DNA of 64,000 nucleotides from Nanobdellota archaeon (GTDB lineage: Archaea; Nanobdellota; Nanobdellia; Parvarchaeales; Parvarchaeaceae), in assembly GCA_021810345.1 (NCBI GenBank), contig JAJZIX010000001.1:7847-71846 (forward strand), read 5' to 3'. The first letter of the stretch is position 1. Every line of letters starts with the position of its first letter. Below the pieces are notes generated by a model. It was given only the letters and a program-made list of their open reading frames with translations, was not told the origin of the DNA and searched no databases. Below, one piece after another: positions 1 to 53,918 of the stretch. Both the position numbers and the translations under genes were made by a program.

Positions 1-26
1 ATCGAATCTTTAAACTTGCCAAAGGC

Positions 27-461: not shown

Positions 462-524
462 CAATTTTACTGGATACCAAGTAGGAAAGAAAATCAAAGG
501 CAAGAAGATAAAGTTCGTCCCATG

Positions 525-1055: not shown

Positions 1056-1130
1056 AATTAAACCTAAAACCTGCTTGCTTTTATACTTTTTACGCCCTAA
1101 CGTGGTAAAAAATAGGTTTATAAGCAAGGA

Positions 1131-1376
1131 ATGAGGAGAGAGTGTATGAAAGCAAATAATCTGAGAGGAATACCTAAATTCCGCGAAGAGGAAAAGAAAA
1201 TGGTCGACGTGGTCGTCGGTTCAGTGCTTTACGGGCTTGGATTGGTCCTTTTGGCACTAGGTTTTGTCTACCTGCTTAGTCAGGCAGTGCCAAAACTTGG
1301 ATTCGACGTCAGCGAGATCATAGTAGGTGCTATCATGTTCGTGATAGCAATCGCGGTATTCAAGGTAAGAGTGTAA
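1131..1376 (+). CDS. small membrane protein (two predicted TM helices)
   Basis: Hydrophobic stretches GSVLYGLGLVLLALGFVYLL and IIVGAIMFVIAIAVF. No homolog recognised. Confidence 0.3.
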   Translation: MRRECMKANNLRGIPKFREEEKKMVDVVVGSVLYGLGLVLLALGFVYLLSQAVPKLGFDVSEIIVGAIMFVIAIAVFKVRV

Positions 1377-1438
1377 AAAACAAGCTTCTTTGACTTTTTC
1401 TTTTTTTTACTTTTTTATCTAGTGAAAAATTAGAAAGG

Positions 1439-1449
1439 TTTATATATAA
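1439..1449 (+). promoter_or_regulatory. putative archaeal TATA box (TTTATATATAA) about 20-29 nt upstream of the trmB-like start codon, preceded by T-runs
   Basis: Sequence aaaggtttatatataat lies upstream of the ATG at 1468. The oligo-T stretch at 1395-1416 probably terminates the preceding gene. Confidence 0.3.
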
Positions 1450-1467
1450 TGCTCTTCATCCAATATT

Positions 1468-2265
1468 ATGGCATTGACATTCAGTGACGATTACGTTGCA
1501 AAGATCAGAAGGCTTTTTGGTCTTAACCTATACGAGGCAAAAATATGGCTTGCACTGCTCTCACAGGGTAAGGCTACCTCCGGGAAGCTTAGCGATATAG
1601 CAAACATCCCAAAATCAAGGGCATATGACATTCTCGTCTCGCTTGAAAACGGCGGATTTGTCGTCAAGGAGCTTGGCAAGCCAATAACCTACATAGCGAT
1701 ACCGCCAGAGGATCTCATAGAGAAGCTTGAGGAGAAGACCAAGGTAGACACGACTCAGAAGCTGGAGAAACTAGCAAAGCTGAAGGACAGCACGGTCCTG
1801 AAGGATCTGCAGGCCCTCTATACAAAGGGAGTGAAGTACGTTGAAGAGAACAAGGTCGCCAACTCATACCAGGGCATAGACGCAGCATATTTCAGGGTCA
1901 AAAAGAGCATAAGGGAAGCGAACAACGAGATAGTCCTCATAACAACGGCAAAAAGCCTGGAAGAGAAGGTAAATTCTCTGGGCAGGGCCTTGAAACAGGC
2001 GAAGGCCAAGAATGTCTCAATACATATATACGCACCTATAAAAGACGTAAGCGAGGCGCTGGCCGAGGAAATAAAGCAGTTTGGCAAGCTGAACAAGCTT
2101 GATTTAGACATAGGAAGGTTCATAATCGTGGACGGAAAGGAGATTTTCATATTTACAGAGAATGAGGAGGACATCCATCCAAGCAATGAGATCGTCCTGC
2201 ACATAAAGGGTTCTTACATCCCAGAGAAAATAAAGAAAATTGCGCAAATGCACACAAAGGAGTGA
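1468..2265 (+). CDS. TrmB-family transcriptional regulator (winged helix-turn-helix)
   Basis: N-terminus LNLYEAKIWLALLSQGKATSGKLSDIANIPKSRAYDILVSLENGGFV matches the TrmB HTH signature (LSEYEAKVYLALL...IPRSRVYDVL). Confidence 0.65.
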   Translation: MALTFSDDYVAKIRRLFGLNLYEAKIWLALLSQGKATSGKLSDIANIPKSRAYDILVSLENGGFVVKELGKPITYIAIPPEDLIEKLEEKTKVDTTQKLEKLAKLKDSTVLKDLQALYTKGVKYVEENKVANSYQGIDAAYFRVKKSIREANNEIVLITTAKSLEEKVNSLGRALKQAKAKNVSIHIYAPIKDVSEALAEEIKQFGKLNKLDLDIGRFIIVDGKEIFIFTENEEDIHPSNEIVLHIKGSYIPEKIKKIAQMHTKE

Positions 2266-2482
2266 ATCCCCGCGTTTGTAATAAGCTTCTGCCCAGCTTC
2301 TTTCAGCACTGTAGGTTTGGATTTATACCCAAGAGCTTATAGCAATGTATTTATCGATGCAAAAGATATAAAATTATGCGAAGTTGTAAATTTTGGCAGA
2401 CTGAGCGTATTAGTTTGGTATATCAAGATGACATAATTTGGGCCATGGACTATTTTCAGCGTGTAGAGGGACATGAAGGCGT

Positions 2483-5400
2483 ATGACTTACATAAAAACA
2501 CTAGAGCTTGACAATTTTAAGTCGTTTTCAGGCCATGTAAAGTTTGATTTCATAAATGGATTCAATGTAATCGCGGGTGCAAACGGTTCAGGCAAGAGCA
2601 ATGTGATAGACGCACTGATGTTCGTCTTCGGCGGCGCCTCCAAGAAAGACATGAGGAGCGAGCTACTCGTAGACCTGATATTCAACGGCGGAAAAGCGAG
2701 GCAGCAGGCGGAAAGTGCAAAAGTCACTCTTACGCTCGACAATTCCAACAAGGAATTCAAAAACTATGAGGAGAAGGAAGTGTCAATAAGCAGGAAGATC
2801 GACAAGAACGGCAAGAGCGTCTTTAGGATAAACGGTAAAGCATCTACAAGGGAGGAGCTGCTAAACCTGCTTTCGCTAATAAAGGTGAAGCAGGACAGCT
2901 TCAATATAATCCCGCAGGGCCGCATAAACGAGATTGCTGCGTCTTCCAATGAGGAACGGCTTCTTCTAGTTAATGAGATATCCGGCATAAGCGTCTTTGA
3001 GGACAAGAAATCAAAGGCAATGCTAGAGATGAAGAAAGTTGAGGAGAATGTATCAAAGATAGAGACCGTCCTGAACGAGAAGAAAAAATTAATGGAGAAG
3101 CTTCAGGCGGAAAAGCAGAGCGCCACTGAATTCGCCGAGTTGAAAGCCAGGCAGCTTCAGCTGCTTGCCAAGCAGGCCACGATCAAGAAAAATATTGCTT
3201 ATGAGAGATGGGACAAGATCAACAAACAGCTGCAGGAGATAAAGTCGAAAAACCAGAAAGTCGCAGAAGCCGATGGGAAAATAAGCCAAAGGATGAGGGA
3301 AATAAACGATGAAATAACCCGGATAAACACCGAGGCCGAAGCGAAGGGTGAGGAAGAGATCTCGAAGACAGAGGCAAAATCAAAGGAGATAGAGACTGAA
3401 ATAGCACAGCTTTCAGCGGTGCAGAGGACGAATGAGGATCAGCTCAGCAAGATAGAAGAAACTCTAAAGGAGCTTTTGAATACAAAGGAAGAACTTTCTG
3501 CGCAGCTGGACAAGGAGTATGAGGAGACTAAGGAATACTCCGATAAAGTATCATCTTTGGAGGCCAGGAGGAGCAGCCTCTTGGAGGAGCTGAACACCGC
3601 AGAGCGTTCGATGAAGGATATAGAGTCGATAGACAAGGAGATAAATGGATTGAACAGGGAGCTTTATGAGGCAAAGCTCGCTTTGACAAATTACCCCAGG
3701 CTGTCGGAGGTGCAGACAAAGCTCAGCGAGCTAAAAAGCGAATACGATAAGCTGGAGCAGGACAAAAAAGCGGCGACAATAAAATTCTCCACTTTGTCAC
3801 CTGAGGTAGAATCCCTAAGGAATTCAATAAAGAAAGAGTCAGATTCAATATACTGGCTCAGGGAGAACCTACTGTCGCAGAAGAACTCTCTTGCCTCGCA
3901 GAACAGGGCTATAGATGTTGTCAATAGACTGAAAAAGAAGATAAGTGGAATCCACGGGACAGTGAGCGAGCTTTTCACGTTAAAGTCAGACGAGTACACC
4001 GTGCCTATATTCAGGTCGATAGGAAGGAGGGGCGAGTTCATAGTGGTTGACAATGAGAATATCGCTTCTGAATGCATAAAGGAGATAAAAGCGGAGAAGC
4101 TTGGCACGTTCAATTTCATACCTCTGAATAAAATAACCTTTATGCCACTCCCAGCTAAACCCGATTCAGCTGGGGTTATAGACTTTACGATAAATCTGGT
4201 GGATTTTGACCAGGCAGTTGCCGGTGCGATGAAATTCGTTTTTGGGGATACTTTGCTCGTTAAGGACATAGACGGCTCAAGGGATCTTATAAACAAGTTT
4301 AGACTGGTAACCATCGACGGCACTGTCGTAGAGAAAACAGGGGTTATGTCCGGTGGCTCGTACGAGCCGTTTAATATATCAGCCATAATGAAGAAGATTT
4401 CCGAGCTTAACAAGAGCATATCCGACCAGACCCAGCTGAAGGAGGAGCAGGAGGCCGCGCTTATAGAGAAGGAATCCGCACTCAGCTCTTTGATGGCATC
4501 GATAAAATCCTGCGAATTTGGGATGTCGCAGCTGAAGCCGCAGATAGAGGCCATGTCAAAGGAAGTATCAAGGTTCTCCGGCTCAGAAAAGGATATGTCG
4601 GACAGGATAACAGAGCTAGAGAAGATGATACGGGCCAAAATGGATGCGCTGGCTTCCATAGAGAGGAGCAAAATAGACCCTGCAAAACACAAAAAAGAGA
4701 TAGAATACCTTGACTCGCAGATAAAAGAGGCCCAGATGAAGCTCATATCATCAAACAGCAAAACAGAAAACATCTCGAAGATAGAATCTGCAAACGTTAG
4801 CAAGAGGATCTCTGATATGGAGAAGGAGAGGTCCAAGTTTACCGATGATTTCGATAGGATCAACAAAGAGTTGGAGACTCTTAACCTAGAGCTAAAAGAG
4901 ACATCGAAAGAGCTTGACAAGAAATCAGGCGAACTCATCTCGCTTAGGAAGCAGCGGGATGCACTGTCGAAGGAGCTGTCATCACTGAATTCAGAGAGGG
5001 ATCGCATACTTGGAGAGAGCAAGAAGATAGGCGATGAGATAAACGCGCTTAATGTAAGTGATGCTGAACTGAGGGTAAAGTATGAAACCGCGGAAGATGA
5101 GTGCAAGAAGTACGCCGAGGTTAAAGTCGAGCTTGTTGAAGGCGAGACACTGGAAAAGATAAACAAGGAGCTGTCATCCGTCTCGTCAAAGATTAACTCA
5201 TTCGGTCCGGTCAATGAACTTGCCCTGGAGACCTTCAATGCGACTTCAGCGGAGTACAATGAGTTCAACGAGAAGCTCAGCAAGCTACTGGAGGAAAAAA
5301 GCAAGATTGATCAGGTGATCTCGGAGATAGAGGACAGGAAGAAAGAAGCGTTCACTAAGACATTGAACGATATAAACACGGTGTTTTCGATGGTCTTTAA

Positions 5401-5818
5401 CTCGCTGACAAACGGTAAGGCGGAACTTTCGCCGGACACCCCAGATGATATATTCTCAGGAGGGCTCGACATACTCGTTGACCTGCCGAATAAAAAAGTG
5501 AGAAACGTCAGGGGGCTCAGCGGAGGGGAGCAATCCATAGTCTCGCTGTCATTGATAATCGCAATATCAAAGTACACCGATGTTCCCTTCTACGTGCTTG
5601 ACGAGGTCGATGCGGCCCTCGACTCGGTCAATTCATCTAAATTCTCGGAGATCGTGCGCGCTTATTCTGAGAAAACACAGTTCATCGTGATATCCCACAA
5701 TGAAAACACGCTTGTCAATGCAGACGTGCTGTATGGAATCACAATGACTTCCGAAGGCACGAGCAAGGTTGTCGGCGTAAAGCTTCCAGGCAAGGTTGAG
5801 AAGGAAAAGGCTCAATGA
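2483..5818 (+). CDS. smc: SMC chromosome segregation ATPase
   Basis: 1111 aa. Walker A FNVIAGANGSGKSNVIDAL. Long coiled-coil regions flank a central hinge. ABC signature LSGGEQSIVSLSLIIAI and Walker B FYVLDEVDAALD at the C-terminus. Confidence 0.9.
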   Translation: MTYIKTLELDNFKSFSGHVKFDFINGFNVIAGANGSGKSNVIDALMFVFGGASKKDMRSELLVDLIFNGGKARQQAESAKVTLTLDNSNKEFKNYEEKEVSISRKIDKNGKSVFRINGKASTREELLNLLSLIKVKQDSFNIIPQGRINEIAASSNEERLLLVNEISGISVFEDKKSKAMLEMKKVEENVSKIETVLNEKKKLMEKLQAEKQSATEFAELKARQLQLLAKQATIKKNIAYERWDKINKQLQEIKSKNQKVAEADGKISQRMREINDEITRINTEAEAKGEEEISKTEAKSKEIETEIAQLSAVQRTNEDQLSKIEETLKELLNTKEELSAQLDKEYEETKEYSDKVSSLEARRSSLLEELNTAERSMKDIESIDKEINGLNRELYEAKLALTNYPRLSEVQTKLSELKSEYDKLEQDKKAATIKFSTLSPEVESLRNSIKKESDSIYWLRENLLSQKNSLASQNRAIDVVNRLKKKISGIHGTVSELFTLKSDEYTVPIFRSIGRRGEFIVVDNENIASECIKEIKAEKLGTFNFIPLNKITFMPLPAKPDSAGVIDFTINLVDFDQAVAGAMKFVFGDTLLVKDIDGSRDLINKFRLVTIDGTVVEKTGVMSGGSYEPFNISAIMKKISELNKSISDQTQLKEEQEAALIEKESALSSLMASIKSCEFGMSQLKPQIEAMSKEVSRFSGSEKDMSDRITELEKMIRAKMDALASIERSKIDPAKHKKEIEYLDSQIKEAQMKLISSNSKTENISKIESANVSKRISDMEKERSKFTDDFDRINKELETLNLELKETSKELDKKSGELISLRKQRDALSKELSSLNSERDRILGESKKIGDEINALNVSDAELRVKYETAEDECKKYAEVKVELVEGETLEKINKELSSVSSKINSFGPVNELALETFNATSAEYNEFNEKLSKLLEEKSKIDQVISEIEDRKKEAFTKTLNDINTVFSMVFNSLTNGKAELSPDTPDDIFSGGLDILVDLPNKKVRNVRGLSGGEQSIVSLSLIIAISKYTDVPFYVLDEVDAALDSVNSSKFSEIVRAYSEKTQFIVISHNENTLVNADVLYGITMTSEGTSKVVGVKLPGKVEKEKAQ

Positions 5819-6603
5819 GCCTTAAGGACGTCTATAAGCCGTGAGAGCTCATAAAATGAGAGACTTTTCACTTCTTTTTCCCCGATGTCTTTAAGTTTGT
5901 CCTCTATCTCTGAATAGGACTGCCGGCTCTGCCTTTTGGTCTGCACCTCTGTCTCCTGGTAAGCCCTGGCGACGGCGTTTTTCACCAGTAGCTCCTCCCT
6001 TTTCAGTGCTTCCTGCACCAGGTTGCTGGGGATCCTGGAGAATTTCACCATATAACTTGTGACTCTCGGCTGCGGATAAAATGACTCCTTTTTAACCTCA
6101 GCTATTTTCGAGAATTCGAAGAACTGGCGCTGTATAAGCGGGAATTTTTTGTTGTCTCCGTTGATTAGGCTGTCGGATATGCTTTTTGGCAGTATCATCG
6201 TACCAGACAGAAAGTCATAGTGGATCAACTTGTTGAATATCCTGTCGACCAGTGTGTATGGGGGATTTGATATCACTTTGGTGAATTTTGGTATTATTAT
6301 TGACAGCACATCCGCATTTATCAGCTCCACGTTTTTATTGAGCTCATATTTATTTATCAGGTATGAATGCAGCTTGACATCCATCTCTACGGCTATGACC
6401 CTGCAGACTTTGCTTATGTTCTCGGTAAGATAACCAAAGCCAGACCCTATCTCAAGGACGATATCATTATTGTTGAGCTGCTGGCTTTCTATTTCCTTGT
6501 TGATGGCAGCCTCATCTACAAGAAAAAACTGGTCCTTTAACTTGGCCCCGGTTATGCCGTAGTCTTTTATCAACGTCACAGTCCTATCAAGAAGTTCGTC
6601 CAT
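5812..6603 (-). CDS. ksgA: 16S rRNA (adenine1518/1519-N6)-dimethyltransferase KsgA/Dim1
   Basis: SAM motif LEIGSGFGYLT, catalytic NPPY motif and a length of 263 aa fit KsgA/RsmA. Confidence 0.8.
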   Translation of the reverse strand: MDELLDRTVTLIKDYGITGAKLKDQFFLVDEAAINKEIESQQLNNNDIVLEIGSGFGYLTENISKVCRVIAVEMDVKLHSYLINKYELNKNVELINADVLSIIIPKFTKVISNPPYTLVDRIFNKLIHYDFLSGTMILPKSISDSLINGDNKKFPLIQRQFFEFSKIAEVKKESFYPQPRVTSYMVKFSRIPSNLVQEALKREELLVKNAVARAYQETEVQTKRQSRQSYSEIEDKLKDIGEKEVKSLSFYELSRLIDVLKAH

Positions 6604-6994
6604 ACCCCTTGCCAGGCTTAAATTTTTCTATATTGAATGCTTCCCCGCACTTCTGGCATTTTACAACGTAAAACTCCTTGTTTTTGCCGTCTTTTCTCAG
6701 TTTGACCGTATCAAGAGAGCCGGAGTAATCGTTCGCGTACTGGCATTTTGGGCATTTGAACTCAAAGTGAAACTGATCCTCTCCTTTTTTCCTGTAGATA
6801 AGGGTCTTCTCTGTCTTATCGTTGTAATTGATGCTAGACTTCTTTATGAAGCTCAAATCATGCACGTCTATCATAATCTTTGAATCACTTCTTGTTTTTA
6901 GACTCTTTTCTGATATTTTAAGCTTACTGCAGGCCGAGCTGTTGGTGTCGAAAGGTTCGTCCTCACCGTCTGACCGGAAAATCCAGAGCTGCAC
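6587..6994 (-). CDS. zinc-ribbon protein (two CxxC pairs), immediately upstream of ksgA on the same strand
   Basis: C-terminus FKCPKCQYANDY...VKCQKCGEAF. Start uncertain (an internal Met at MIDVHDL is possible). Confidence 0.35.
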   Translation of the reverse strand: MQLWIFRSDGEDEPFDTNSSACSKLKISEKSLKTRSDSKIMIDVHDLSFIKKSSINYNDKTEKTLIYRKKGEDQFHFEFKCPKCQYANDYSGSLDTVKLRKDGKNKEFYVVKCQKCGEAFNIEKFKPGKGYGRTS

Positions 6995-7075
6995 AAACGC
7001 TGCATACAGTATGGATTAGCCCATAAAAGCGGTTTAAATACATTTTTAAATAGTGGCAACCATTAAAAAAGAGTT

Positions 7076-7780
7076 ATGAAGATTCCAAGATCGAGGAGAA
7101 GGGGAAAAAGCAAGGTTTTCAGGGCCAACGCCTTCAGGGCCGTAGGCATATCAAGGCTGATAAGGTCTGATAGCGGGATGAATGGCCGCGTTACAAAATT
7201 AATACATGACGTTTACAGGACTTCTCCTTTGATGGAGGTCAAATTTGAGGATGGGCAGACAACGTTCTTGCCGGCCTTTTCAGGCGCATATGTGGGCAAG
7301 AACATAAGCTACCTGAAGCCAGAGATGCTTACCACTGGTTCTATACAAAAACTTGGGAACATCCCACCGGGCACGGACATATATGATGTTGAGCTAAAAC
7401 CAGGAGACGGCGGCAAGATAGTAAGGGCCGGCGGAACCAGCGCAAAAGTAATGGAAGTGTCCCAGGACAATATAGCTGTCTCTCTGCCGAGCGGTTCAAT
7501 GGTAAGGCTCAACCCGGAGTGCAGGGCGATAATCGGCAGGATCGCAAATGCCGGAAGGAAAGAGAAGCCTTTTTATAAGGCGGGAAACAAATATCACTTA
7601 ATATACGCGCGTGCAAGGTACTGGCCTATGACGGCTGCAGTGGCTATGAACGCCTATGAGCACAAGTTTGGAGGGAAACGTAGAAGTACGCAGCACAAGT
7701 CAAAGAGCGCTTCAAGGCGCGCACCTCCGGGAGCCAAGGTCGGTTCGATAGCACCAAAGCGCACAGGAATGAAAAGATAA
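7076..7780 (+). CDS. rpl2: 50S ribosomal protein L2 (uL2)
   Basis: [33 protein letters not shown] and HKFGGKRR motifs. Basic N- and C-termini. 234 aa. Confidence 0.9.
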
Positions 7781-7782
7781 TC

Positions 7783-8169
7783 ATGGAAGAGTATATTTAC
7801 AGGGGAAAGAAGATAGCCGATTTAAAAGCCATGGACAGGAACGAGCTTTTCAAGCTTGTCAACTCCGATGTTAGGAGAGTCATGAAGCGCGGCTATTCTG
7901 ACGAGGAAAAGAGATTCCTGGCTAACATGAAGAAGAAGAGCGCAAAGTCGAAGCCGATTAAGACCCACCTAAGGGAGATGTTCATACTGCCGGATTTCGT
8001 CGGCCTGACAATCAGTGTCCACAATGGAAAGGAATTCGTTCCCGTTGAGATAAAGCCAAATATGGTGTTCCACAGGCTCGGAGAGTACGCATTGACAACC
8101 AAGCAGGTTAGGCACAACTCGCCTGGCCTAAGGGCTACACGCTCAAGCGGGTTCGTCCCTATTAAGTAA
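7783..8169 (+). CDS. rps19: 30S ribosomal protein S19 (uS19)
   Basis: [29 protein letters not shown] matches the S19 core (GHKLGEF). Position directly after L2. Confidence 0.85.
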
Positions 8170-8174
8170 TTGAT

Positions 8175-8699
8175 ATGGCCACAAAAGTATCCTCTGCAAG
8201 GGAAAGCCTGCCAATATCAAAGAAGCATGTCCATGAAATAGCCGAGGCTATAAAGGGGAAAAACATAGACAGGGCCATAGCCTATCTGGAAAGAGTGAAA
8301 GCACAGAAGGATTTTGTTCCTTTCATGAAATACCCCAGCAAAGGCCACAAACATGGCATACCAGCGGGTTACCCGAAGAAGGCATCGGTCCAGATAATAA
8401 GGATGCTCAAGGAACTGAAAGCAAATGCAAAGTATATGGGTTTTGAGGTGTCAGCTTTGACTGTCTCGGGATACATGCTTGGCAGGGGAGCCTACCCAAG
8501 GTACGGCGGCGGCAAGGTCTATAGGAGGGGCAAGCGCACAAACATAACACTTTATACCATTGTTAATCAGGAGCGCAAGAAAGAGGAGAAGAAACCCGAA
8601 GCGGCTCCGCAAGAGACTAAAAAAGAGGAAACAAAAGAAATTAAAGCAGAAGAGACAAACAAAAGTGAGGCAAAAGATGTTACCAAAGAAAATAATTAA
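8175..8699 (+). CDS. rpl22: 50S ribosomal protein L22 (uL22) with a Lys/Glu-rich C-terminal extension
   Basis: Position between S19 and S3. Central basic core GYMLGRGAYPRYGGGKVYRRGKRTNITLYT. Low-complexity KE-rich tail. Confidence 0.8.
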   Translation: MATKVSSARESLPISKKHVHEIAEAIKGKNIDRAIAYLERVKAQKDFVPFMKYPSKGHKHGIPAGYPKKASVQIIRMLKELKANAKYMGFEVSALTVSGYMLGRGAYPRYGGGKVYRRGKRTNITLYTIVNQERKKEEKKPEAAPQETKKEETKEIKAEETNKSEAKDVTKENN

Positions 8700-9348
8700 T
8701 TCAAAGACCAATGATGAGGTCGCAAGGGAGCTGATAATGAACCGGTTGTCAAGGTTCGGCATAAGCAGCGTTGGGATAGAGAAGACACCGCTTGGCATGA
8801 AAGTAGTTGTGAGGACAACGAAGCCGGGTTTCCTTCTTACAAGAGCGAACCAGACGCTCAAGGACCTGTCAAAGGAACTTGGGGTGTACTTTAAGCAGGA
8901 ATCACCTCACATAGACGTGGAGCAGGTCGACGATCCGCTTTTGGATCCAGAGTCAGTAGCCGATTCGATAGCATTCAAGATTGCAAAGTTCGGTCCGATG
9001 AAGTACAAAGTAGTGGCCCATAAAGCGATGGATGATATAATGGCCGCCGGCGCGAAAGGCGTTGAGATAGAGATAGGCGGAGTGATAAAGGAGAGGGCAG
9101 CTCATTTCAAGTTTAGGCCTCATGGAAGCGTAATGCCAAAAACAGGGCAGCTCGAGGATTTTGGTGTTAGGAAAGCAAAGAAACAGCTTGTACTGAAGCG
9201 CGGATCAATAGGCATAAAGGTCACAATTGTTGCGCCAACGCATGCAGCAAGTGAGGTGGAGTTCAAAAATGGAAGAAAATCTGAAGGATCTGGAGCTGGA
9301 GCTCCTGAAAATGAACATAAAGAGGACGCAGGGGCTGCAGCCAGCTGA
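8677..9348 (+). CDS. rps3: 30S ribosomal protein S3 (uS3), KH domain
   Basis: Start chosen at MLPKKI. The tracker ORF beginning at 8560 is an in-frame upstream extension across the L22 tail. KH-like region and the typical position after L22. Confidence 0.85.
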   Translation: MLPKKIINSKTNDEVARELIMNRLSRFGISSVGIEKTPLGMKVVVRTTKPGFLLTRANQTLKDLSKELGVYFKQESPHIDVEQVDDPLLDPESVADSIAFKIAKFGPMKYKVVAHKAMDDIMAAGAKGVEIEIGGVIKERAAHFKFRPHGSVMPKTGQLEDFGVRKAKKQLVLKRGSIGIKVTIVAPTHAASEVEFKNGRKSEGSGAGAPENEHKEDAGAAAS

Positions 9349-22355: not shown

Positions 22356-22868
22356 GCTTATAATTTTTTCTATACTTGGTATTTCGCTGCTGTAGTCTAC
22401 CTTGTTGTTTGGATGCTTCTTGCCTTTCATTGCATTTATAATCTCATCTACAGTTTTATCAGGATTATGCGTGTTGTCTATCTGTATTGTATTTTTGTGC
22501 AGGCTTTTTGATTCTACATAGCATCCGTCGATTGCCTCAAACATTGCGTTGTCATATATTTTCTGCTTCGAGTATCCCCTTTTTAGGAGCCTTTTATACA
22601 GAACGAGCGGCCTGCACCTCAAAACTACCCACAATGATACTTTTTTGGACCTTATGAAATGCCCAAGATGTGATACAATAACCATGTTGCCGCTGATGCT
22701 TCTAGCCACAATTCTGTTTATCTCAGGAATAGACACCTCCACTTCGCCTTTTTTGCCGGATTTTAGAATCTTGTTAAGGTCTAGCAGCTTGTAGCCAAGC
22801 CGCTCTGAGAGTTTTTTTCCTATAAGGTGCTTGCCTGTGCCAGGCGTGCCGCTTATTACGATTATCAT
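22344..22868 (-). CDS. Fap7/AK6-like putative adenylate kinase (P-loop NTPase)
   Basis: MIIVISGTPGTGKHLIGKKL Walker A at the extreme N-terminus. The length of 174 aa and overall pattern resemble archaeal Fap7 (adenylate kinase isoenzyme 6 homolog). Confidence 0.55.
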   Translation of the reverse strand: MIIVISGTPGTGKHLIGKKLSERLGYKLLDLNKILKSGKKGEVEVSIPEINRIVARSISGNMVIVSHLGHFIRSKKVSLWVVLRCRPLVLYKRLLKRGYSKQKIYDNAMFEAIDGCYVESKSLHKNTIQIDNTHNPDKTVDEIINAMKGKKHPNNKVDYSSEIPSIEKIISSAA

Positions 22869-22959
22869 ATATTCAAGAGTATCAATTCAAATTTAACCCT
22901 TGCCATTGCAATAAAGGTTACAGTAATGTATTTATCGGTAAAAGATAAGATAATAATGT

Positions 22960-26619: not shown

Positions 26620-26702
26620 GCAGAGGTAGCGAAGCGGTCAAACGTGTAAGGCTAAGGACCTTATGGCTCAGGCCTTCGAGGGTTCAAATCCCTCCCTCTG
26701 CA
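26620..26702 (+). tRNA. class II tRNA (long variable arm), Leu-like, apparent anticodon AAG
   Basis: Hand-folded cloverleaf. Acceptor GCAGAGG/CCTCTGC. D-stem with a G-T pair. Anticodon stem TAAGG/CCTTA. Loop CTAAGGA. 14-nt variable arm. T-arm GAGGG-TTCAAAT-CCCTC. Differs at 4 positions from the copy at 51290. May be a degenerate duplicate. Confidence 0.65.
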
Positions 26703-26750
26703 TTTTTTGTCTGATGAAAACCATTTATCCATTCTCTCTATCCTTGTTGT

Positions 26751-26813
26751 ATGAGTCCCCCACGAAGGTCCCAATCAGCACTGGAGTACATGATGATGAC
26801 TATATCCATTTAA
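26751..26813 (+). pseudogene. 20-codon remnant of a pilin-family gene (MSPPRRSQSALEYMMMTISI*)
   Basis: Shares the conserved promoter/5' region and the first 16 codons with the pilin genes at 30660 and 51420. Truncated by a stop after codon 20. Confidence 0.55.
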
Positions 26814-27035
26814 AGCCTTCTGTCCTGCTAGCTGTTAGGAATATGGCCTACAATAATAGTATGTCTTCAGTGAGCTTCGGAAGCGTTTCTTAAAACTCTT
26901 TAATTTAATTTTCTAAACTTCTGCAACAACCATAAACGTGGGTTTTTTGCTAATCCCGTGGCAATTCAATCATAAAAAAGGTTAAATACTTGTAAAAGAT
27001 TATGCTATATATAATTAAAAGAGTCGAGGTGAATT

Positions 27036-28399: not shown

Positions 28400-28861
28400 A
28401 TGGAAAAGCATCAGTTGTATGTTTTGGCTGGGCTTTCAGTTTTTATAATTATAATGTTTCTTTTGGCTCCTGCTTTATCCGGCAAGCCAGTGGCCAAATC
28501 GGTGGTGGTATTGCCCTCATTGGCATGCTCCTCGTACAATTTAGGGTTCAATTACACTGGCCCAACATCAATAACAGCCGTCAAGAATGAGACTACATTT
28601 GGAAAATTTTACATCTATAATGAGGGTAATGTAACGGAGAATATAAGCATAGACGCTTCTCCCAAGCCGGGAGAGCCAATCAAGATAGTTAATGCTAACC
28701 CGTTTGAGGCCCAAGTTGGCAATGCAGCTTATTACACGGAGTTTGTCGTCCAGAATCCGTTGGTAGCGGGTAATTATTCCGTAAATGTTAACCTGACCTC
28801 TTCTTATCTAAACTGCTCTAAATCCAAAGTGTTCACCGTGAATGTGTCTGTTCCGTCTTAA
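28400..28861 (+). CDS. secreted or membrane-anchored protein with N-glycosylation sequons
   Basis: N-terminal signal/anchor LYVLAGLSVFIIIMFLLAPALSG. Several N-x-S/T sites. Confidence 0.4.
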   Translation: MEKHQLYVLAGLSVFIIIMFLLAPALSGKPVAKSVVVLPSLACSSYNLGFNYTGPTSITAVKNETTFGKFYIYNEGNVTENISIDASPKPGEPIKIVNANPFEAQVGNAAYYTEFVVQNPLVAGNYSVNVNLTSSYLNCSKSKVFTVNVSVPS

Positions 28862-30435: not shown

Positions 30436-30509
30436 GCATCGGTAGTCCAGTGGTAAGACACCACCCTGCCACGGTGGTAACCCGGGTCCGAATCCCGGCC
30501 GATGCACCA
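30436..30509 (+). tRNA. tRNA-Gly (anticodon GCC), CCA encoded
   Basis: Acceptor GCATCGG/CCGATGC. Anticodon stem CCACC/GGTGG. Loop CTGCCAC. T-arm CCGGG-TCCGAAT-CCCGG. 3' ACCA. Confidence 0.8.
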
Positions 30510-30623
30510 TTTATTAAATCGTTGCTGCGGTTTTTCTGGCCGCAGTGTCATGCTACTCTTCTTATCCTCCTCTTCTTTCGTCTATACCCGCAAAGCAGCA
30601 GAATTTGGCTGTTGTGGCATATG

Positions 30624-30638
30624 AAAACTATTTATTTA
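30624..30638 (+). promoter_or_regulatory. conserved BRE/TATA-like element (AAAACTATTTATTTA) about 25-35 nt upstream of the pilin ATG
   Basis: The same element recurs upstream of the pilin-family starts at 26751 and 51420. The spacing suggests leaderless or short-leader transcripts. Confidence 0.35.
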
Positions 30639-30659
30639 CTCTCTCCTTTTCTCTCTTAT

Positions 30660-31772
30660 ATGAGTCTCCCACGAAGATCCCAATCAGCATTGGAGTACAT
30701 GATGACTTATGGTTGGGCCATACTGGTCATTGTGATAGTTGCAGGGGTCTTGTACAGTCTAGGTATCTTTTCCCCTTCATCATCGCTGTCAACAACAATA
30801 ACAGGCTTCTCAGGCTTAGGAGTAACTCAAGCTGGATGCGTGAACTCAGTAAACAACCAAATTCTTGAATTGTATGTCACAAACACAGTCGGTTATCCAG
30901 TAAACATAACAAAAATTAACACTACAGGTAACAACGGCGTAGATGCTTCACAAAATGTAAGCTCGATCTTAGGCGATGGGGACTCTGCGGTGTTTTATAT
31001 CAATGGCGCATGCAACAAGTCTTCTTCTTATGGCGGGTCGGTTACTATAACATATACAGAGCCAGGACAAGCCCTTCCAGGGCCTTATTCTTCAACCGGT
31101 AGAGTAGCCAATGTCCTAGTCTCATCTAACTCAAATTTAGTTGCCAGTTTTAATGGTGTTAACTCATTCATAAATGCTTCTTTGAAACAAGAGCCGATCG
31201 GTAAATCTGTCAGAACTGCTATAATGTGGTTTTATGACAGTAATTCAGCCAATAAGCAACATGTATTTGCATATGGCTGTGGAGGTGGATCTTGTGGCGG
31301 AGGTAAATATTTCACGGTTTATATCTCAAATGGTGACTTAACCCTGAATGCGTATTACACCAATCAGGGCGTTTACTCACCAATACAAAATAACACTTGG
31401 TACTTTTTGGTCTATGAATATAATGGCACGGCACAGATAGGCTATGTTGGTTACGCTGGGAATCTTTATAGTGTATACGGAAATTATAATTATAATACAA
31501 CCCAAACGCCTTTGTATATAGGGTGTGAGGGAAATGATAATGGTGCGGTGTGTAATTCTCAGTTTTGGTATGGGTATATCTCCAATTTTCAGTTATACGA
31601 TCAAGCTTTATCAGCAAGGCAGATTACAGACCTATATAAAAGTGGTATGGGAGCTGCACCGCTTTCTAATAGTGGATTAATAAGCTGGTATCCTTTAGAT
31701 GGAAACGCGAATGATTACAGTGGCCAAAATAACAACGGTGTAGCTACCAACGTTCAGTGGGTCTCTACTTAA
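30660..31772 (+). CDS. type IV pilin-like/adhesin protein with a class III signal peptide and a C-terminal LamG-like domain
   Basis: MSLPRRSQSALEYMMTYGWAILVIVIVAGVLYSLGIFSP has a charged n-region, QSALEY and a hydrophobic helix. Secreted-type S/T/N/G-rich composition with many sequons. C-terminus NFQLYDQALSARQITDLY...WYPLDGNANDYSGQNNNGVATNVQWVS resembles LamG_3 motifs. The tracker ORF from 30429 is a spurious extension across tRNA-Gly. Confidence 0.7.
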   Translation: MSLPRRSQSALEYMMTYGWAILVIVIVAGVLYSLGIFSPSSSLSTTITGFSGLGVTQAGCVNSVNNQILELYVTNTVGYPVNITKINTTGNNGVDASQNVSSILGDGDSAVFYINGACNKSSSYGGSVTITYTEPGQALPGPYSSTGRVANVLVSSNSNLVASFNGVNSFINASLKQEPIGKSVRTAIMWFYDSNSANKQHVFAYGCGGGSCGGGKYFTVYISNGDLTLNAYYTNQGVYSPIQNNTWYFLVYEYNGTAQIGYVGYAGNLYSVYGNYNYNTTQTPLYIGCEGNDNGAVCNSQFWYGYISNFQLYDQALSARQITDLYKSGMGAAPLSNSGLISWYPLDGNANDYSGQNNNGVATNVQWVST

Positions 31773-31805
31773 TTGTTCTATTATAATAAGGTGTAGTCAT
31801 CGGCT

Positions 31806-32126
31806 CTATTCTTTTTTTCTGTGTGTAAGTCTATACAGGTAGAACCAATTCCTTATGTTGTTTATCTTCCTTATAATCTGAGAAGGACCTACGAAAAACA
31901 ACACTAACACAACAATAGAGGCCACTGCGATAATAAGCGTATAAGGGTTGAGAAGCCCTATGTACGACAGGCCTCCAAACACCAGAAATGTAGTTATCAA
32001 TCCTGCGTCCTTTCTGTAAGTGTAGGTTATAGCTACAGCAAAGGCGACTATACCTATAAAACCATAGAAGAGAATTGGCTCATTGTACTGCATTGAGAGT
32101 ATTATTGCTGCGAGTACGTTGCTCAT
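31806..32126 (-). CDS. small membrane protein (three TM helices)
   Basis: Hydrophobic profile only. Confidence 0.35.
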   Translation of the reverse strand: MSNVLAAIILSMQYNEPILFYGFIGIVAFAVAITYTYRKDAGLITTFLVFGGLSYIGLLNPYTLIIAVASIVVLVLFFVGPSQIIRKINNIRNWFYLYRLTHRKKE

Positions 32127-37729: not shown

Positions 37730-37785
37730 ACTGAGATATGTATATTAATTATCAAATCTAATTTAAATATAGTATTTTAGGCTTT

Positions 37786-37858
37786 GGGTCCATGGTCTAG
37801 TGGTTATGACGTCTGCTTGACGTGCAGAAGGCCGGGAGTTCAAATCTCCCTGGGCCCA
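37786..37858 (+). tRNA. tRNA-Val (anticodon GAC)
   Basis: Acceptor GGGTCCA/TGGGCCC. Anticodon stem TCTGC/GCAGA. Loop TTGACGT. T-arm GGGAG-TTCAAAT-CTCCC. Confidence 0.8.
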
Positions 37859-37866
37859 TCTATTAC

Positions 37867-45291: not shown

Positions 45292-45768
45292 ATGGTCTTT
45301 ATTGGTTCTAAGTCCGGCGATGTGATGGGCCTTAGCCTTGGCATTCTGATAACCATAGTCATAATAATAATTCTGCTGCTGGTATTTGTTACTCCAATAA
45401 GAACGATACTTATAGGCACGCTAAGCGCCATCCCTTCCCTGATATCCAGCGTCGGCAAAAGCGGCGGCGGGACTTCTAGCCTGGGCACAACAACCACAAA
45501 TTTCACGGCTTATAACTGTACTGGAGTCTCATGTGTAAGATTTGAGAGCTTACCCTACACATGGACTCTAAACTACAATGGGAACAACCAGTCAGCTTTT
45601 GCAAATCAGTCGATACATTTCACCACTGCCCCTCTGAATTACTCTCTGACAGCTTACCCAATACAAGGTAAAAGCATACAGTACTGCTCAAATCTGAGCG
45701 TAAGCCAACCGGCTACGGCAAAGCTTGAGGCAGGATATTCATACACAATTTATTACAAAGTGTGCTGA
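45292..45768 (+). CDS. membrane-anchored surface protein carrying one LPxxWxxNYNG repeat module
   Basis: N-terminal TM anchor LSLGILITIVIIIILLLVFV. The S/T-rich SLPYTWTLNYNGNNQSAFANQSIHFTTAP module is similar to the repeats in the 708-aa protein. Several sequons. Confidence 0.45.
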   Translation: MVFIGSKSGDVMGLSLGILITIVIIIILLLVFVTPIRTILIGTLSAIPSLISSVGKSGGGTSSLGTTTTNFTAYNCTGVSCVRFESLPYTWTLNYNGNNQSAFANQSIHFTTAPLNYSLTAYPIQGKSIQYCSNLSVSQPATAKLEAGYSYTIYYKVC

Positions 45769-45798: not shown

Positions 45799-45999
45799 AT
45801 GCGAGAAATTAAGATGGTTTTTCACAGGCTTGGGAGCAAGGGCGCAATATCGCTCGGACTTGAAATAATAATCTTGATAATCATAGCGATAGCACTGTTG
45901 GTTATCCTGTTGTTTCTTATAAGAAGCGGAATAATATCGCCTGTGACCCACCTGACTTCAACTGTAAACACAAGCAATATAAACAACAGCATCCCTTAG
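45799..45999 (+). CDS. small putative pilin-like protein (class III-like N-terminus)
   Basis: HRLGSKGAISLGLEIIILIIIAIALLVILLF shows the KG-A-ISLGLE pattern, a hydrophobic helix and a short S/T/N tail. Weak call. Confidence 0.3.
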   Translation: MREIKMVFHRLGSKGAISLGLEIIILIIIAIALLVILLFLIRSGIISPVTHLTSTVNTSNINNSIP

Positions 46000-46014: not shown

Positions 46015-46089
46015 GGGGCGGTGATCTAGTTTGGTTATGATGCCAGCCTAGGGCGCTGGATGTCCTGGGTTCAAATCCCAGCTGCCCCA
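46015..46089 (+). tRNA. tRNA-Pro-like, apparent anticodon AGG
   Basis: Acceptor GGGGCGG/CTGCCCC. Anticodon stem CCAGC/GCTGG. Loop CTAGGGC. T-arm CTGGG-TTCAAAT-CCCAG. The A at position 34 is unusual. Confidence 0.65.
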
Positions 46090-46133: not shown

Positions 46134-46265
46134 ATGTCTCATAACACAAAAAGCCAGTCCGCCCTTGAATATTTAATGACGTATGGCTGGGCCATTTTGG
46201 TCATTGTCATCGTCGCAGGAGTCTTATACAGTCTAGGAATATTCTCACCGGGCTCATCTTGCTAA
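46134..46265 (+). pseudogene. 43-codon pilin-family fragment holding only the class III signal peptide and TM helix (MSHNTKSQSALEYLMTYGWAILVIVIVAGVLYSLGIFSPGSSC*)
   Basis: Near-identical to the N-termini of the 30660 and 51420 pilins. It stops right after the conserved SLGIFSP motif. Located 45 nt downstream of tRNA-Pro. Confidence 0.5.
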
Positions 46266-46291: not shown

Positions 46292-46840
46292 TTATAATTT
46301 AAAACTCTCTACTCCAGAATAACTAGGGTACGACATGCTTATTGTTAGATTTGACCACGTAGAAATCGGGACGGGGTTTATGGTGATCGTACTGCCAGAT
46401 ATTTGAATATTACCGTACATGATATCTAAAATATCCCCTTTTGAGATTGTTGCAGGGCCAGAACTCGCAAAAAATATCACGTAGCCTAGTCCGGCATTAC
46501 TTGAAACCCAAACCACGGGGTGGCCAGAGCTCTTTGACTGCACACCTTGATTGCTGGCCCAAGATATCGTGTAGCTTCCGGCTAGTTCTGAGGTTTTGAT
46601 AGAATTCATATACATGGAGATGTGATCTTCATCCATCGATGTAGGATTGATAAAGGTAACCACTAAATTGACGGCTGCAGTAACTGAACTTGAGCCAGTG
46701 TCGTTCCCATTCGACGAGAATGTCATATTCAGGGGACTGCCACCCAATCCGCCACCATGGCCGGCTAAGAAATAGATGGATAGGGACACGGCTACGATGA
46801 TGACTGCAGCTACTGGCAAATACACTGTTTTAATATCCAT
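46292..46840 (-). CDS. secreted or surface protein (N-terminal signal anchor, S/G-rich)
   Basis: MDIKTVYLPVAAVIIVAVSLSIYFLAG anchor. Sequons NMT, NDT and NLT. Confidence 0.4.
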   Translation of the reverse strand: MDIKTVYLPVAAVIIVAVSLSIYFLAGHGGGLGGSPLNMTFSSNGNDTGSSSVTAAVNLVVTFINPTSMDEDHISMYMNSIKTSELAGSYTISWASNQGVQSKSSGHPVVWVSSNAGLGYVIFFASSGPATISKGDILDIMYGNIQISGSTITINPVPISTWSNLTISMSYPSYSGVESFKL

Positions 46841-51171: not shown

Positions 51172-51289
51172 CTGATTACTTATAAATGACAGGTCCTTCA
51201 AGCGCATGATTACCCTTATAATATAATGCTTTATATTGGTTTTCATGCACTGAAAAGTTAATATTGGTGTGGATCTAAAAAGCAGTGTT

Positions 51290-51372
51290 GCAGGGGTAGC
51301 GAAGCGGTCAAACGCGTAAGGCTTAGGACCTTATGGCTCAGGCCTTCGAGGGTTCAAATCCCTCCTCCTGCA
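51290..51372 (+). tRNA. tRNA-Leu (anticodon TAG), class II
   Basis: Same scaffold as the tRNA at 26620 but with a canonical D-stem (GCG/CGC) and loop CTTAGGA. Acceptor GCAGGGG/CTCCTGC. Confidence 0.8.
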
Positions 51373-51384
51373 TTTTGGTTCAAT

Positions 51385-51399
51385 AAAAACTATTTATTC
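51385..51399 (+). promoter_or_regulatory. conserved BRE/TATA-like element (AAAAACTATTTATTC) upstream of the pilin gene
   Basis: Homologous to the elements at 30624 and 26716. Confidence 0.35.
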
Positions 51400-51419
51400 A
51401 TTCTCTTTACCTCTATTAT

Positions 51420-52556
51420 ATGAGTCTCCCACGAAGATCCCAATCGGCATTGGAATACATGATGACGTATGGCTGGGCCATACTGGTAATCGTCATCGTC
51501 GCAGCAGTCCTGTATTCCTTAGGTATCTTCTCTCCTGCATCGTCTTTATCTCTTACAGTAACAGGATTCTCAGGTTTTGTAGGTACTCAGGCCGACTGCA
51601 CTCCATCAGGTGTATTGGTCCTATCACTCAACGATGCGCTCGGAAATCCTGTTTTCATAAAATATGCAAATTCAACATACAATGGCAAAACCTTCTCATC
51701 AAACGTTTCTGAGACTATACTCCCAGACTCTTCCGGTAAGATACTTATACTTAACGGCTGCGTCAACTCATCAAATGTTCATTTTTCATCCACAGTGACG
51801 CTGGAATACACAGAGCCCGGCCAACCCCTGCCTGGGCCTTATATAAGTACAGGTTATATCACAGGCACTACTTCCTCATTCGTACAGAATACAGTCTCAG
51901 AGTTCATTGTAAATCAAAGTCAAATATACATACCAAATTCAACTACTACTTATAATATGTGGCAGGGTGGGCCTTATACCTTGTCATCTTGGGTGAATTT
52001 GACATCTGATACTGCATCATGTCAGCATTATCCTTGTGTAGCTCTTATCCAGGTTGAATTTGGCTGCACATCCGGCGTACAAGACTTCGCGGCAAATTCA
52101 AGTGGTTTTTGGACAAATGAATTAGAGTGGAATGTCACTCACACCTCGTGTACATCCGGTCAGACATCTCCATCAATTTTCGTTCCTTTTGATAAATGGG
52201 CACTTATAACTGGAATCTTCGGGTATAATAGTTCATCCTCTAGCTATTATGTTGAAATCTGTGTGGATGCAAAATGTGATGAAAATCCTTATACTCTTGA
52301 TCATCCCGGTTACCAAGGTACAGGCGCAACGGCAATCGGTGCATACCAGTTATCTGGCAGAATAGCAAATGTCCAACTCTATAGTTTTGCACTTTCCCAT
52401 AATCAGATTCAGACAATGTATGATGAAGGATACGCAGGTATACCCCCAACTACCAATGGATTAGTGGCATGGTATCCTTTGGATGGCAACGCGAATGATT
52501 ATTCTGGTAATAATAACAATGGCGTTGCAACAAATGTTCAGTGGGTATCACCTTGA
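51420..52556 (+). CDS. type IV pilin-like/adhesin protein, class III signal peptide plus LamG-like C-terminus (paralog of 30660)
   Basis: MSLPRRSQSALEYMMTYGWAILVIVIVAAVLYSLGIFSPASS. The C-terminus LVAWYPLDGNANDYSGNNNNGVATNVQWVSP is about 85% identical at DNA level to the 3' end of 30660..31772. The middle is divergent. Confidence 0.7.
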   Translation: MSLPRRSQSALEYMMTYGWAILVIVIVAAVLYSLGIFSPASSLSLTVTGFSGFVGTQADCTPSGVLVLSLNDALGNPVFIKYANSTYNGKTFSSNVSETILPDSSGKILILNGCVNSSNVHFSSTVTLEYTEPGQPLPGPYISTGYITGTTSSFVQNTVSEFIVNQSQIYIPNSTTTYNMWQGGPYTLSSWVNLTSDTASCQHYPCVALIQVEFGCTSGVQDFAANSSGFWTNELEWNVTHTSCTSGQTSPSIFVPFDKWALITGIFGYNSSSSSYYVEICVDAKCDENPYTLDHPGYQGTGATAIGAYQLSGRIANVQLYSFALSHNQIQTMYDEGYAGIPPTTNGLVAWYPLDGNANDYSGNNNNGVATNVQWVSP

Positions 52557-53802: not shown

Positions 53803-53918
53803 GGGGTTGTAGTCTAATCCGGCAGAATAGGCGGCTCCAGTTTATCTGGAAACATGACTCTAAACGGGGGATGATTAGAAGAAACCGCTTGATCCAGGTT
53901 CAAATCCTGGCAACCCCA
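53803..53918 (+). tRNA. tRNA-Trp (anticodon CCA) with an intron of about 43 nt after position 37
   Basis: Acceptor GGGGTTG/CAACCCC. Anticodon stem GGCGG/CCGCT. Loop CTCCAG|intron|A. T-arm CCAGG-TTCAAAT-CCTGG. The intron TTTATCTGGAAACATGACTCTAAACGGGGGATGATTAGAAGAA contains a GATGA (C-box-like) motif. Confidence 0.75.

Follow-up and report, generated by a model that had tools for sequence, protein, structure and literature searches.

In a 64,000-nucleotide (nt) stretch of DNA from a Nanobdellota archaeon (GTDB family Parvarchaeaceae; GenBank assembly GCA_021810345.1, contig JAJZIX010000001.1, positions 7,847 to 71,846 of the forward strand), called the window from here on and with a G+C content of 43%, two intact open reading frames (ORFs) encode pilin-like proteins. 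Pilin A lies at 30660-31772 (370 aa) and pilin B at 51420-52556 (378 aa), both on the forward strand and both where an earlier note on this DNA had placed them. That note had read the pair, with its conserved ends and variable middle, as a silent/expressed cassette system comparable to the pilin genes of Neisseria. It had counted A, B and two truncated copies, all of which are present, and had missed two further full-length paralogs, C inside the window and D just upstream of it. At least four full-length members (A, B, C and D) of a dispersed pilin-like family thus lie within about 66 kb in a Parvarchaeota (ARMAN-4-like) population. Recombination in this family is pervasive: some paralogs are mosaics, alleles have been replaced at fixed loci, and whole genes are present in one strain and absent from the next. 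The resulting variation of the pilins between strains is very high against a genomic background that is otherwise near-identical.

The proteins of this family are built from four parts, namely a class-III-type leader with its helix, a beta domain, a LamG domain and a conserved tail. In pilin A, the leader MSLPRRS and the hydrophobic N-terminal helix (Q8 to about S45) are encoded at 30660-30794 and include the block QSALEYMMTYGWAIL, which is invariant across the family and retained in all of the members listed. The beta domain follows (residues 46-153, 30795-31118) and ends in a near-invariant YTEPGQxLPGPYxSTG, the site at which module breakpoints cluster. The LamG domain (31119-31664; Pfam Laminin_G_3, 1.4e-09, with a pentraxin/LamG fold match) is the most variable module across the family, and the gene closes with the conserved C-terminal tail GLISWYPLDGNANDYSGQNNNGVATNVQWVST and the stop codon (31665-31772), a stretch of three predicted beta strands that would act as the 3' recombination anchor. 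Pilin B has the same architecture. Homologs of pilin A number more than 1000; those that carry a name belong to Candidatus Parvarchaeota or Parvarchaeum ARMAN-4, and the more distant ones to Micrarchaeota.

The N-termini of A and B, which the earlier note had described as almost identical, share 42 of their first 45 residues, and 28 of the last 33 residues are identical as well. The centre is as divergent as had been claimed, with 88 of 261 aligned residues identical (34%) and 44% identity at the nucleotide level. An identity of about 85% reported for the last ~80 nt was somewhat too high, since A and B measure 77.5% there. A blastn comparison aligns the ends alone, nt 1-173 at 79.2% and the last 93 nt at 78.5%, and the borders between conserved and variable DNA are sharp, with no uniform decay of similarity along the gene. 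The exact DNA runs within these conserved ends span no more than 11-26 nt; the 3'-end strings that had been quoted (TGGTATCCTTT, AACGCGAATGATTA and GTTCAGTGGGT), of 11-14 nt, are the longest exact matches. The DNA motif of the leader and helix occurs six times in the window where 0.16 occurrences would be expected by chance. The variable middle, for its part, is not one unit as had been supposed; it is variable, and it consists of two modules, the beta domain and the LamG core.

Paralog D (P0084, 392 aa) shows these modules in another combination. The gene lies about 0.95 kb before the start of the window, on a contig whose 9,052-nt overlap with it (window 1-9052) is 100% identical, and it is a three-part mosaic of an A-like helix, a B-like beta domain and a LamG domain of its own. 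Codons 1-50 of D are A-like, with 92-93% nucleotide identity to A and a proportion of differing synonymous sites (pS) of 0.23-0.32, as against 72% identity to B in codons 21-40. Codons 61-160 are B-like, at 90-98% nucleotide identity and a pS of 0-0.36, and the encoded protein is near-identical to that of B, whose beta domain DNA is 95-98% identical to that of D. From about codon 161 onwards, D encodes a LamG domain unrelated to that of either A or B (pS 0.7-1.0), and an exact match of 62 nt between B and D ends at this mosaic junction. A degenerate-pattern exact scan of metagenomes for the B/D junction peptide gave no match, and a metagenome scan for related loci returned, among the matches listed, only distant relatives at 30-50% identity.

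The locus that holds D varies between strains in the same modular fashion. Its gene order is ScpA-ScpB, the pilin, in some strains an AbiEii module, and then HIT-TrmB-SMC, and assemblies with 98.1-99.0% identical flanks differ in the pilin at this position, which is D, P0003 or P0007. D and P0003 have in common nt 1-155 (93.5% identical) and the last 50-87 nt, and their middles, 937 nt long in D and 859 nt in P0003, are unrelated. P0003 and P0007 agree at 97% over nt 1-493, beyond which they differ through the LamG core. The breakpoints at this locus accordingly fall at nt ~155-173, at nt ~493 and within the tail, and the variable region has been swapped at a fixed locus by way of conserved flanking sequence, which is the behaviour known from pilE/pilS. 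The AbiEii toxin gene and its partner of 199 aa, located between D and HIT in some strains (L084 11349-12588, just before the window start, compared with L196), are missing from GCA_023474395.1 and from the more distant genome of L001; this module is a second presence/absence polymorphism at the D hotspot.

Pilin A itself occupies a strain-variable slot, 30567-31807, which here consists of the pilin and its promoter. The slot begins 57 nt after a tRNA-Gly(gcc) gene (30436-30509, forward strand, called by ARAGORN and Rfam, 150 nt upstream of pilin A), and in strains without A the left edge of homology is at 30566. Between this tRNA and the 106-aa and Pth2 genes on the other side, with flanks about 99% identical between strains, the locus exists in three states: pilin A in L169, L171 and L174; 106 nt of unrelated filler in place of window 30567-31807 in three metagenome-assembled genomes (MAGs); and another LamG pilin, with a ..YTSNYPTTGLP tail, in L176. 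In a more distant Parvarchaeota contig that is syntenic to window 30509-30660 (L032, 1144-3001), four extra genes stand between the tRNA-Gly and the pilin, by eye a uracil-DNA-glycosylase-like, a DUF488-like and a ferredoxin-like gene and one small ORF, and from these insertions the site next to tRNA-Gly appears to be a general insertion hotspot. The pilin of L032 at this syntenic locus is masked by Ns after residue ~147.

Traces of exchange are also found in single-nucleotide differences between strains, in comparisons between genomes, and across the family at large. Of the 52 differences between L003 and the window, 46 lie within -39 to +265 of B (304 nt at the 5' end), and 7 of the 13 differences between L188 and the window lie inside 70 nt of the B tail. 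Variants of B at nt 303-381 in two assemblies carry the bases of D. The homology of L003 with the window starts at 51381, and upstream of this point L003 has the tail of another pilin in place of tRNA-Leu. In GCA_027371035.1, an A-type gene sits beside HIT, i.e. at the D position and thus at a different locus from A of the window; its DNA is 87.5% identical to A with 0.58 synonymous substitutions per synonymous site (dS), while the seven housekeeping genes that flank it have a pS of 0.71-0.84, at or near saturation. Within this gene the LamG domain is the part most like A (pS 0.28) and the tail the least (pS 0.74), and the tail resembles those of B and of another paralog. Across the family, 151 protein pairs have beta domains at least 85% identical and LamG domains at most 50% identical, and their inferred breakpoints pile up at residues 146-155, just past YTEPGQxLPGPYxSTG; the reciprocal pattern was found in four pairs. 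Between LamG identity and the identity of the helix (r 0.01) or of the tail (r 0.14) there is essentially no correlation.

Why the ends are conserved is a separate matter. Among 102 aligned members, conservation was scored as the mean fraction of sequences with the commonest residue in 10-residue bins, in A numbering, and sequence types were clustered at 70% identity over slightly different ranges (50-148 for the beta domain and 165-305 for LamG). Conservation is 0.80-0.99 in the helix (residues 11-50, one cluster), 0.46-0.76 in the beta domain (51-150, 23 clusters), 0.14-0.42 in the LamG core (171-300, 70 clusters among the 102 members) and 0.72-0.90 in the tail (341-370, 10 clusters). A and B differ at a pS of about 0.7 in the middle, and the values for codons 21-60 (about 0.69) and for the tail (0.49-0.66) come close to it; the first ~20 codons alone are lower, at 0.28-0.32. 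Several serines swap between AGY and TCN codons. Because the synonymous sites of A and B are near saturation in most of the ends, the similarity of those ends is mainly the work of purifying selection on the protein and not of homogenization of the DNA, and because the same ends are kept in many species they are functionally constrained.

That these proteins are pilins is suggested by the leader, the helix and a structural model. A, B and D all begin MSLPRRS|QSALEYMMTYGWAILVIVIVAGVLYSLGIF, with R at -2, S at -1, Q at +1 and E at +5, as in the leader of an archaeal type IV pilin; the N-termini of A and B, MSLPRRS|QSALEYMMTYGWAILVIVIVA, consist of a short charged leader followed by about 30 hydrophobic residues. 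Judged by its sequence, this layout fits the logic of an archaeal type IV pilin. An AlphaFold (AF2) model of A, for which the 102 family members were the input, has a mean pLDDT (predicted local distance difference test) of 82.9 and a pTM (predicted template modelling score) of 0.76. It places a helix at 10-33, the beta domain at ~46-153, a jelly roll at ~160-313 and a further helix at 319-328, and it gives the tail three confident strands (340-344, 360-363 and 366-369); an N-terminal helix followed by a beta-rich globular part is the arrangement of type IV pilins. The Laminin_G_3 profile matches A at residues 185-322 with 38.7 bits, above the cut-off of 27.6, and B at residues 179-331 with a marginal 26.5 bits, just under that cut-off. 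A Foldseek search of the PDB with the model returned pentraxins and LamG domains over ~222-233 aligned columns, with a template modelling (TM) score for the target of ~0.7 and E-values down to 1e-7. The domain of A, then, both scores above the profile threshold and has a predicted jelly-roll fold superposable on solved LamG and pentraxin structures, and the LamG-like domain suspected in the earlier note has its place in the model, next to the beta domain.

In most of the members listed the tail reads ..WWPLDGNANDYSGNNNNGVATNVxWVSP, and a minority have a longer ..YTSNY.. variant. In A and B the form GLxxWYPLDGNANDYSGxNNNGVATNVQWV (31665-31769 and 52458-52553) comes after the typical LamG end motif NFQLYDQALSARQITDLY. 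The tail may correspond to the first two strands of Laminin_G_3, a resemblance suggested by its motif and by the three modelled strands. Its position suggests a circular permutation of LamG or, possibly, the donation of strands to a neighbouring subunit. Moving the tail in front of the LamG domain left the Pfam match unchanged, the profile beginning after those strands, and PDB sequence searches with the permuted domain and with a profile of the tail returned nothing informative.

Each of these genes appears to bring its own promoter. Directly upstream of A is a promoter-like block, ATGAAAACTATTTATTTAC (30621-30659, forward strand), which resembles a transcription factor B recognition element (BRE) followed by a TATA box, with TATTTAT at -31 to -25 from the ATG; this block is precisely where the homology of A to the pilin genes of other loci and other genomes begins. 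The corresponding block of B is at 51381-51419 (forward strand), and 51381 is the very position at which the homology of L003 begins. The shared block ATGAAAACTATTTAT is found at 30621-30659, 51381-51419 and 26712-26750, with a TATA-like core some 28 nt ahead of the ATG and without a Shine-Dalgarno sequence, a combination that implies leaderless pilin mRNAs. In other Parvarchaeota genomes, too, the pilin genes have this block conserved. By these marks, A, B and D are apparently all expressed, each being full length and preceded by the same BRE/TATA-like promoter.

The two truncated copies, which had been said to retain only the conserved 5' end, do exactly that (26751-26813 and 46134-46265, both without the variable part). 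Truncated copy 1 consists of a promoter and the first 15 pilin codons (26751-26796, forward strand, 46 nt of homology within a 20-aa ORF at 26751-26813) and lies 49 nt downstream of tRNA-Leu(aag), 26620-26702. At the same locus the pilin gene of L184 is intact and encodes at least 489 aa, and the last codons of that gene, ..PSVSFGSVS*, continue into window 26861-26893 (forward strand), where the last ~11 codons of the deleted gene (..SVSFGSVS*) are still found. Since the intact allele runs into this segment, copy 1 is the remnant of an internal deletion. The L184 protein (3-1472) has the family helix and beta domain followed by a different, non-LamG C-terminal domain (WDYISQDFGQNVEFFYPNGTTIPSWLENY), which indicates that the pilin scaffold carries other binding modules too. 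Truncated copy 2 is a 43-aa ORF with leader and helix only (46134-46265, forward strand), 45 nt downstream of tRNA-Pro (46015-46089). A reading of copy 2 as a conserved "mini-pilin" was set aside: related short ORFs break at differing points, as do the 5'-only pilin remnants of 63-76 aa in other Parvarchaeota, and a remnant is the simpler reading. From their sequences, the 5'-only ORFs would be scars of rearrangements that begin in the conserved 5' block, and one possible route to them is homology-facilitated illegitimate recombination.

Taken together, we hold it probable that these genes form a recombining modular family of LamG pilin-like adhesin paralogs, each with a promoter-like block of its own, whose constrained ends serve as homology. 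The ends would be conserved first by need, the N-terminus for prepilin processing and filament packing and the tail as a supplier of beta strands associated with the LamG jelly roll, and the conserved stretches (one from the promoter to around codon 55, one at the end of the beta domain, and the tail as the third) would double as recombination homology. Exchange among paralogs and co-occurring strains, presumably by homologous recombination of the RadA type with the conserved blocks as anchors, would then swap the beta domain, the LamG core or both, while whole genes are gained and lost at intergenic slots, several of them beside tRNA genes. Transcription would be leaderless from the BRE/TATA-like block, and the products would assemble into pili whose LamG domains bind host surfaces. 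The outcome would be that each strain has its own repertoire of LamG adhesins while the rest of the genome stays near-identical, a repertoire likely used for attachment to the surfaces of hosts (Thermoplasmatales), with diversity perhaps selected by host range or by viruses that target pili.

Several points weigh against this reading. No donor was identified for any of the replaced segments. A and B give no signal of recent exchange with one another, except possibly in the first ~66 nt, and the low divergence there could equally be nucleotide-level constraint on a probably leaderless mRNA. The identity of the proteins as pilins comes from the logic of the sequence and from the model; no curated class-III-signal or pilin profile in Pfam or NCBIfam matches A, B or C at E<=1, and pilus assembly genes are absent among the ten neighbouring ORFs of the window that were scanned, which include RNA polymerase, ribosomal proteins and GatD. 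D is likely, and no more than likely, to lie upstream in the very genome of the window: its contig differs from the window at 13 and 18 other positions and so is not part of the window's own assembly. The comparison sequences, moreover, are all metagenome assemblies, in which chimeras can arise at repeats; against this concern, P0003 is read on five contigs from several assemblies, the empty A site in three MAGs, and the ORFs across the junctions are intact.

The same concern, taken to its end, would make the mosaics and the alternative alleles artefacts of metagenome assembly across the repeated pilin ends. The comparison loci do come from short-read assemblies throughout, the pilin ends are repeats of 50-170 nt, and the contigs L001, L003 and L184 break at pilin genes. 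Yet the stretches shared between paralogs are non-identical and mostly shorter than the k of 141 that the contig names imply, P0003 is embedded in a contig of 291 kb, the MAGs with the empty A site have contigs of 102-291 kb there, and every chimera is in frame, all of which makes this explanation very improbable. There is a somewhat better, though still slight, chance that A, B and their relatives are ordinary old paralogs, their ends held by purifying selection and their middles diverged by drift and point mutation with no recombination at all. The synonymous divergence of A and B, which is about equal in helix, tail and middle, and the conservation of both ends family-wide in many species are what such a history would leave. 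But point mutation cannot yield a pS of 0-0.2 between D and B in codons 61-160 beside 0.7-1.0 from codon 161, nor unrelated middles of 860-940 nt between flanks 98-99% identical, nor an A-type gene at another locus that is far less diverged than its background, and this explanation is contradicted for D, P0003, P0007, L003 and L001. Pilin genes might instead travel as cargo of integrative mobile elements that target tRNA genes, moved by site-specific integration and excision and not by homologous recombination; four pilin starts stand 45-150 nt downstream of same-strand tRNAs and a fifth gene ends 7 nt from one, A is a clean presence/absence polymorphism from 57 nt after tRNA-Gly, and the AbiEii module comes and goes beside the D locus. 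We give this idea similarly little credence: there are no partial tRNA duplicates (att-like repeats) around the genes, an integrase did not turn up among the neighbouring gene calls and ORFs that were scanned, the unit that varies often lies within the gene, and D stands away from any tRNA, as do most pilin loci elsewhere (a tRNA within 400 nt at ~8 of 74).

The cassette model of the earlier note, finally, would have one expressed locus converted from silent, promoterless donors, with the truncated copies among them, as in the programmed antigenic variation of pilE/pilS. The conserved-variable-conserved layout agrees with it, as does the swapping of cassettes at one fixed locus, where the breakpoints lie in the conserved ends, and the ~76 kb inspected out of a genome of ~1 Mb (a size taken from PMC5498576) leave room for silent loci elsewhere. 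What speaks against it is the state of the copies. A six-frame profile search for LamG plus tail over the window and 12 kb upstream matched A, B and D only, all of them full length with a promoter, and no promoterless LamG copy or tail fragment; the truncated copies are promoter and 5' end without the variable region, the reverse of pilS, and copy 1 is the leftover of a deletion; no (G3+N1-12)x4 G-quadruplex (G4) motif is present on either strand of the window; and several paralogs look expressible where the model has one. We therefore regard programmed switching of this kind as improbable, and the system as one of recombining adhesin paralogs and not a silent-cassette switch. Of the gene conversion between conserved flanks that the note had proposed, the replacement of the middle at the fixed D locus and the mosaic paralogs uphold one part, while the ends of A and B are explained by constraint.

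A stronger version of our own reading deserves mention. The conserved promoter/helix block and the conserved tail could be dedicated anchors of high-frequency switching of LamG cassettes in an episymbiotic archaeon, with other expressed paralogs, neighbouring strains or silent loci outside the sampled DNA as donors, a proposal that we consider unlikely. If it were true, single lineages could change their host-surface specificity, or escape viruses that target pili, on ecological time scales, and the system would be a functional archaeal counterpart of bacterial pilin and adhesin antigenic variation.

Comparison with known systems places the family nearer to the bab genes of Helicobacter pylori than to pilE/pilS, and by analogy bab is the closest system of those compared. 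The bab family has N- and C-terminal homology regions around a variable middle and full-length paralogs at several loci; gene conversion produces chimeras whose breakpoints lie in these regions at the 5' and 3' ends, and a given locus holds a different paralog or is empty depending on the strain (PMC4552749). The present family matches this picture: A, B and D stand full length at separate loci, homologous at their 5' and 3' ends and divergent in between, chimeric genes occur with breakpoints in the homologous parts, and loci hold a different paralog or none by strain. The likeness is one of analogy and not homology: the bab products are bacterial outer-membrane adhesins, whereas these are unrelated pilin-like LamG proteins of an archaeon; the CT-repeat phase variation of bab was not seen here; and conversion in bab was demonstrated by experiment, where here it is inferred from sequence. 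With Neisseria pilE/pilS the family shares a type IV pilin with a constant N-terminus and conserved 3' sequence around variable segments, and the replacement of the variable part at a fixed locus by homologous recombination. The donors in Neisseria are promoterless, 5'-truncated silent copies, gonococci have a G4/small RNA initiator, and switching is very frequent; here, by contrast, the 76 kb hold no silent copies, the window has no G4, and the truncated copies keep the wrong end.

Among archaea, the PilA1-PilA6 pilins of Haloferax volcanii are encoded by dispersed genes away from pilB/pilC and have an almost fully conserved H-domain, with C-terminal parts and adhesive properties that differ (PMC4371748). 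Unlike the present family, they lack both a LamG domain and a conserved C-terminal tail, neither mosaicism nor the exchange of cassettes between strains is reported for them, and their leader is of the PibD type, while the Q at +1 here is Epd/EppA-like. An expansion of LamG jelly rolls in ARMAN/DPANN archaea (Mia14, Micrarchaeota) is known; such proteins are abundant in DPANN, some have links to genomic islands and to type IV pilus loci, and a role in host interaction has been proposed (PMC5498576); the pilin-LamG-tail architecture, the conserved ends and the recombination between copies described here are not described there. A partial parallel to the tRNA-adjacent slots is the pilin island of Pseudomonas aeruginosa, where, according to the account in PMC5331068 (citing Kus and Giltner), pilA beside tRNA-Thr is a hypervariable region in which divergent pilin alleles are swapped between strains. 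It differs in being, on that account, a single locus with allele-specific accessory genes, exchanged through horizontal transfer or phage and with no multi-paralog mosaicism. The claim that nothing equivalent is described for archaeal pili thus needs tempering, as paralogs with near-identical H-domains and the LamG expansion of ARMAN archaea were already on record; recombination or mosaicism of archaeal pilins itself was not found in any publication in a limited literature search.

The matter is of some consequence for the biology of these cells. ARMAN/DPANN archaea need physical contact with host cells, and pili-like connections of ARMAN cells to Thermoplasmatales have, according to PMC5498576, been seen by electron microscopy; what is at stake is the basis of host recognition. 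As strains near-identical across the compared flanks differ at the LamG pilin genes, these proteins are likely determinants of specificity. The family offers a concrete archaeal case of surface variation driven by recombination, a strategy known until now mostly from pathogenic bacteria; it has a direct bearing on host recognition by an obligate episymbiont, and the defined loci and breakpoints make the idea directly testable.

The remaining features of the window concern paralog C and the neighbours of the pilin genes. Paralog C (39993-37867, reverse strand, 708 aa) has the same helix, a beta domain that is ~40% identical, and an unrelated C-terminus without LamG or tail; after the beta domain come about 550 residues rich in Ser, Thr and Asn-X-Ser/Thr that look internally repetitive, and Pfam and NCBIfam scans of the protein gave no match. 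Its stop codon is 7 nt from tRNA-Val (37785-37860). Pilin B follows 47 nt after tRNA-Leu(tag) (51289-51373, forward strand, called by ARAGORN and Rfam), and all five pilin-like loci of the window touch a tRNA gene, four of them with starts 45-150 nt downstream of a same-strand tRNA (Leu, Gly, Pro and Leu). With 8 tRNAs in 64 kb, the chance of such adjacency is about 1% per pilin start; it is much weaker in the other genomes, at ~8 of 74 loci with a tRNA within 400 nt, and D is not adjacent to a tRNA. No att-like partial tRNA repeats were found flanking the pilin genes.

Small ORFs with N-terminal hydrophobic segments also lie near the pilin loci (45799-45999, 45292-45768, 28400-28861 and, on the reverse strand, 46292-46840), one of them with a class-III-like start (GSKGAISLGLEIIILIII). 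The last three of these were scanned and gave no Pfam or NCBIfam match; the small ORFs could be further pilin-like or surface proteins. A weak match to the pilin leader/helix DNA motif, with 3 mismatches, is found at 22861-22880 on the reverse strand. Directly after the DUF655 gene, at 53803-53918, Rfam reports a tRNA of 116 nt (44.6 bits) that ARAGORN did not call and that probably contains an intron, and the genome JAMCRN (L011) has a B-type pilin after DUF655, at roughly the same place.

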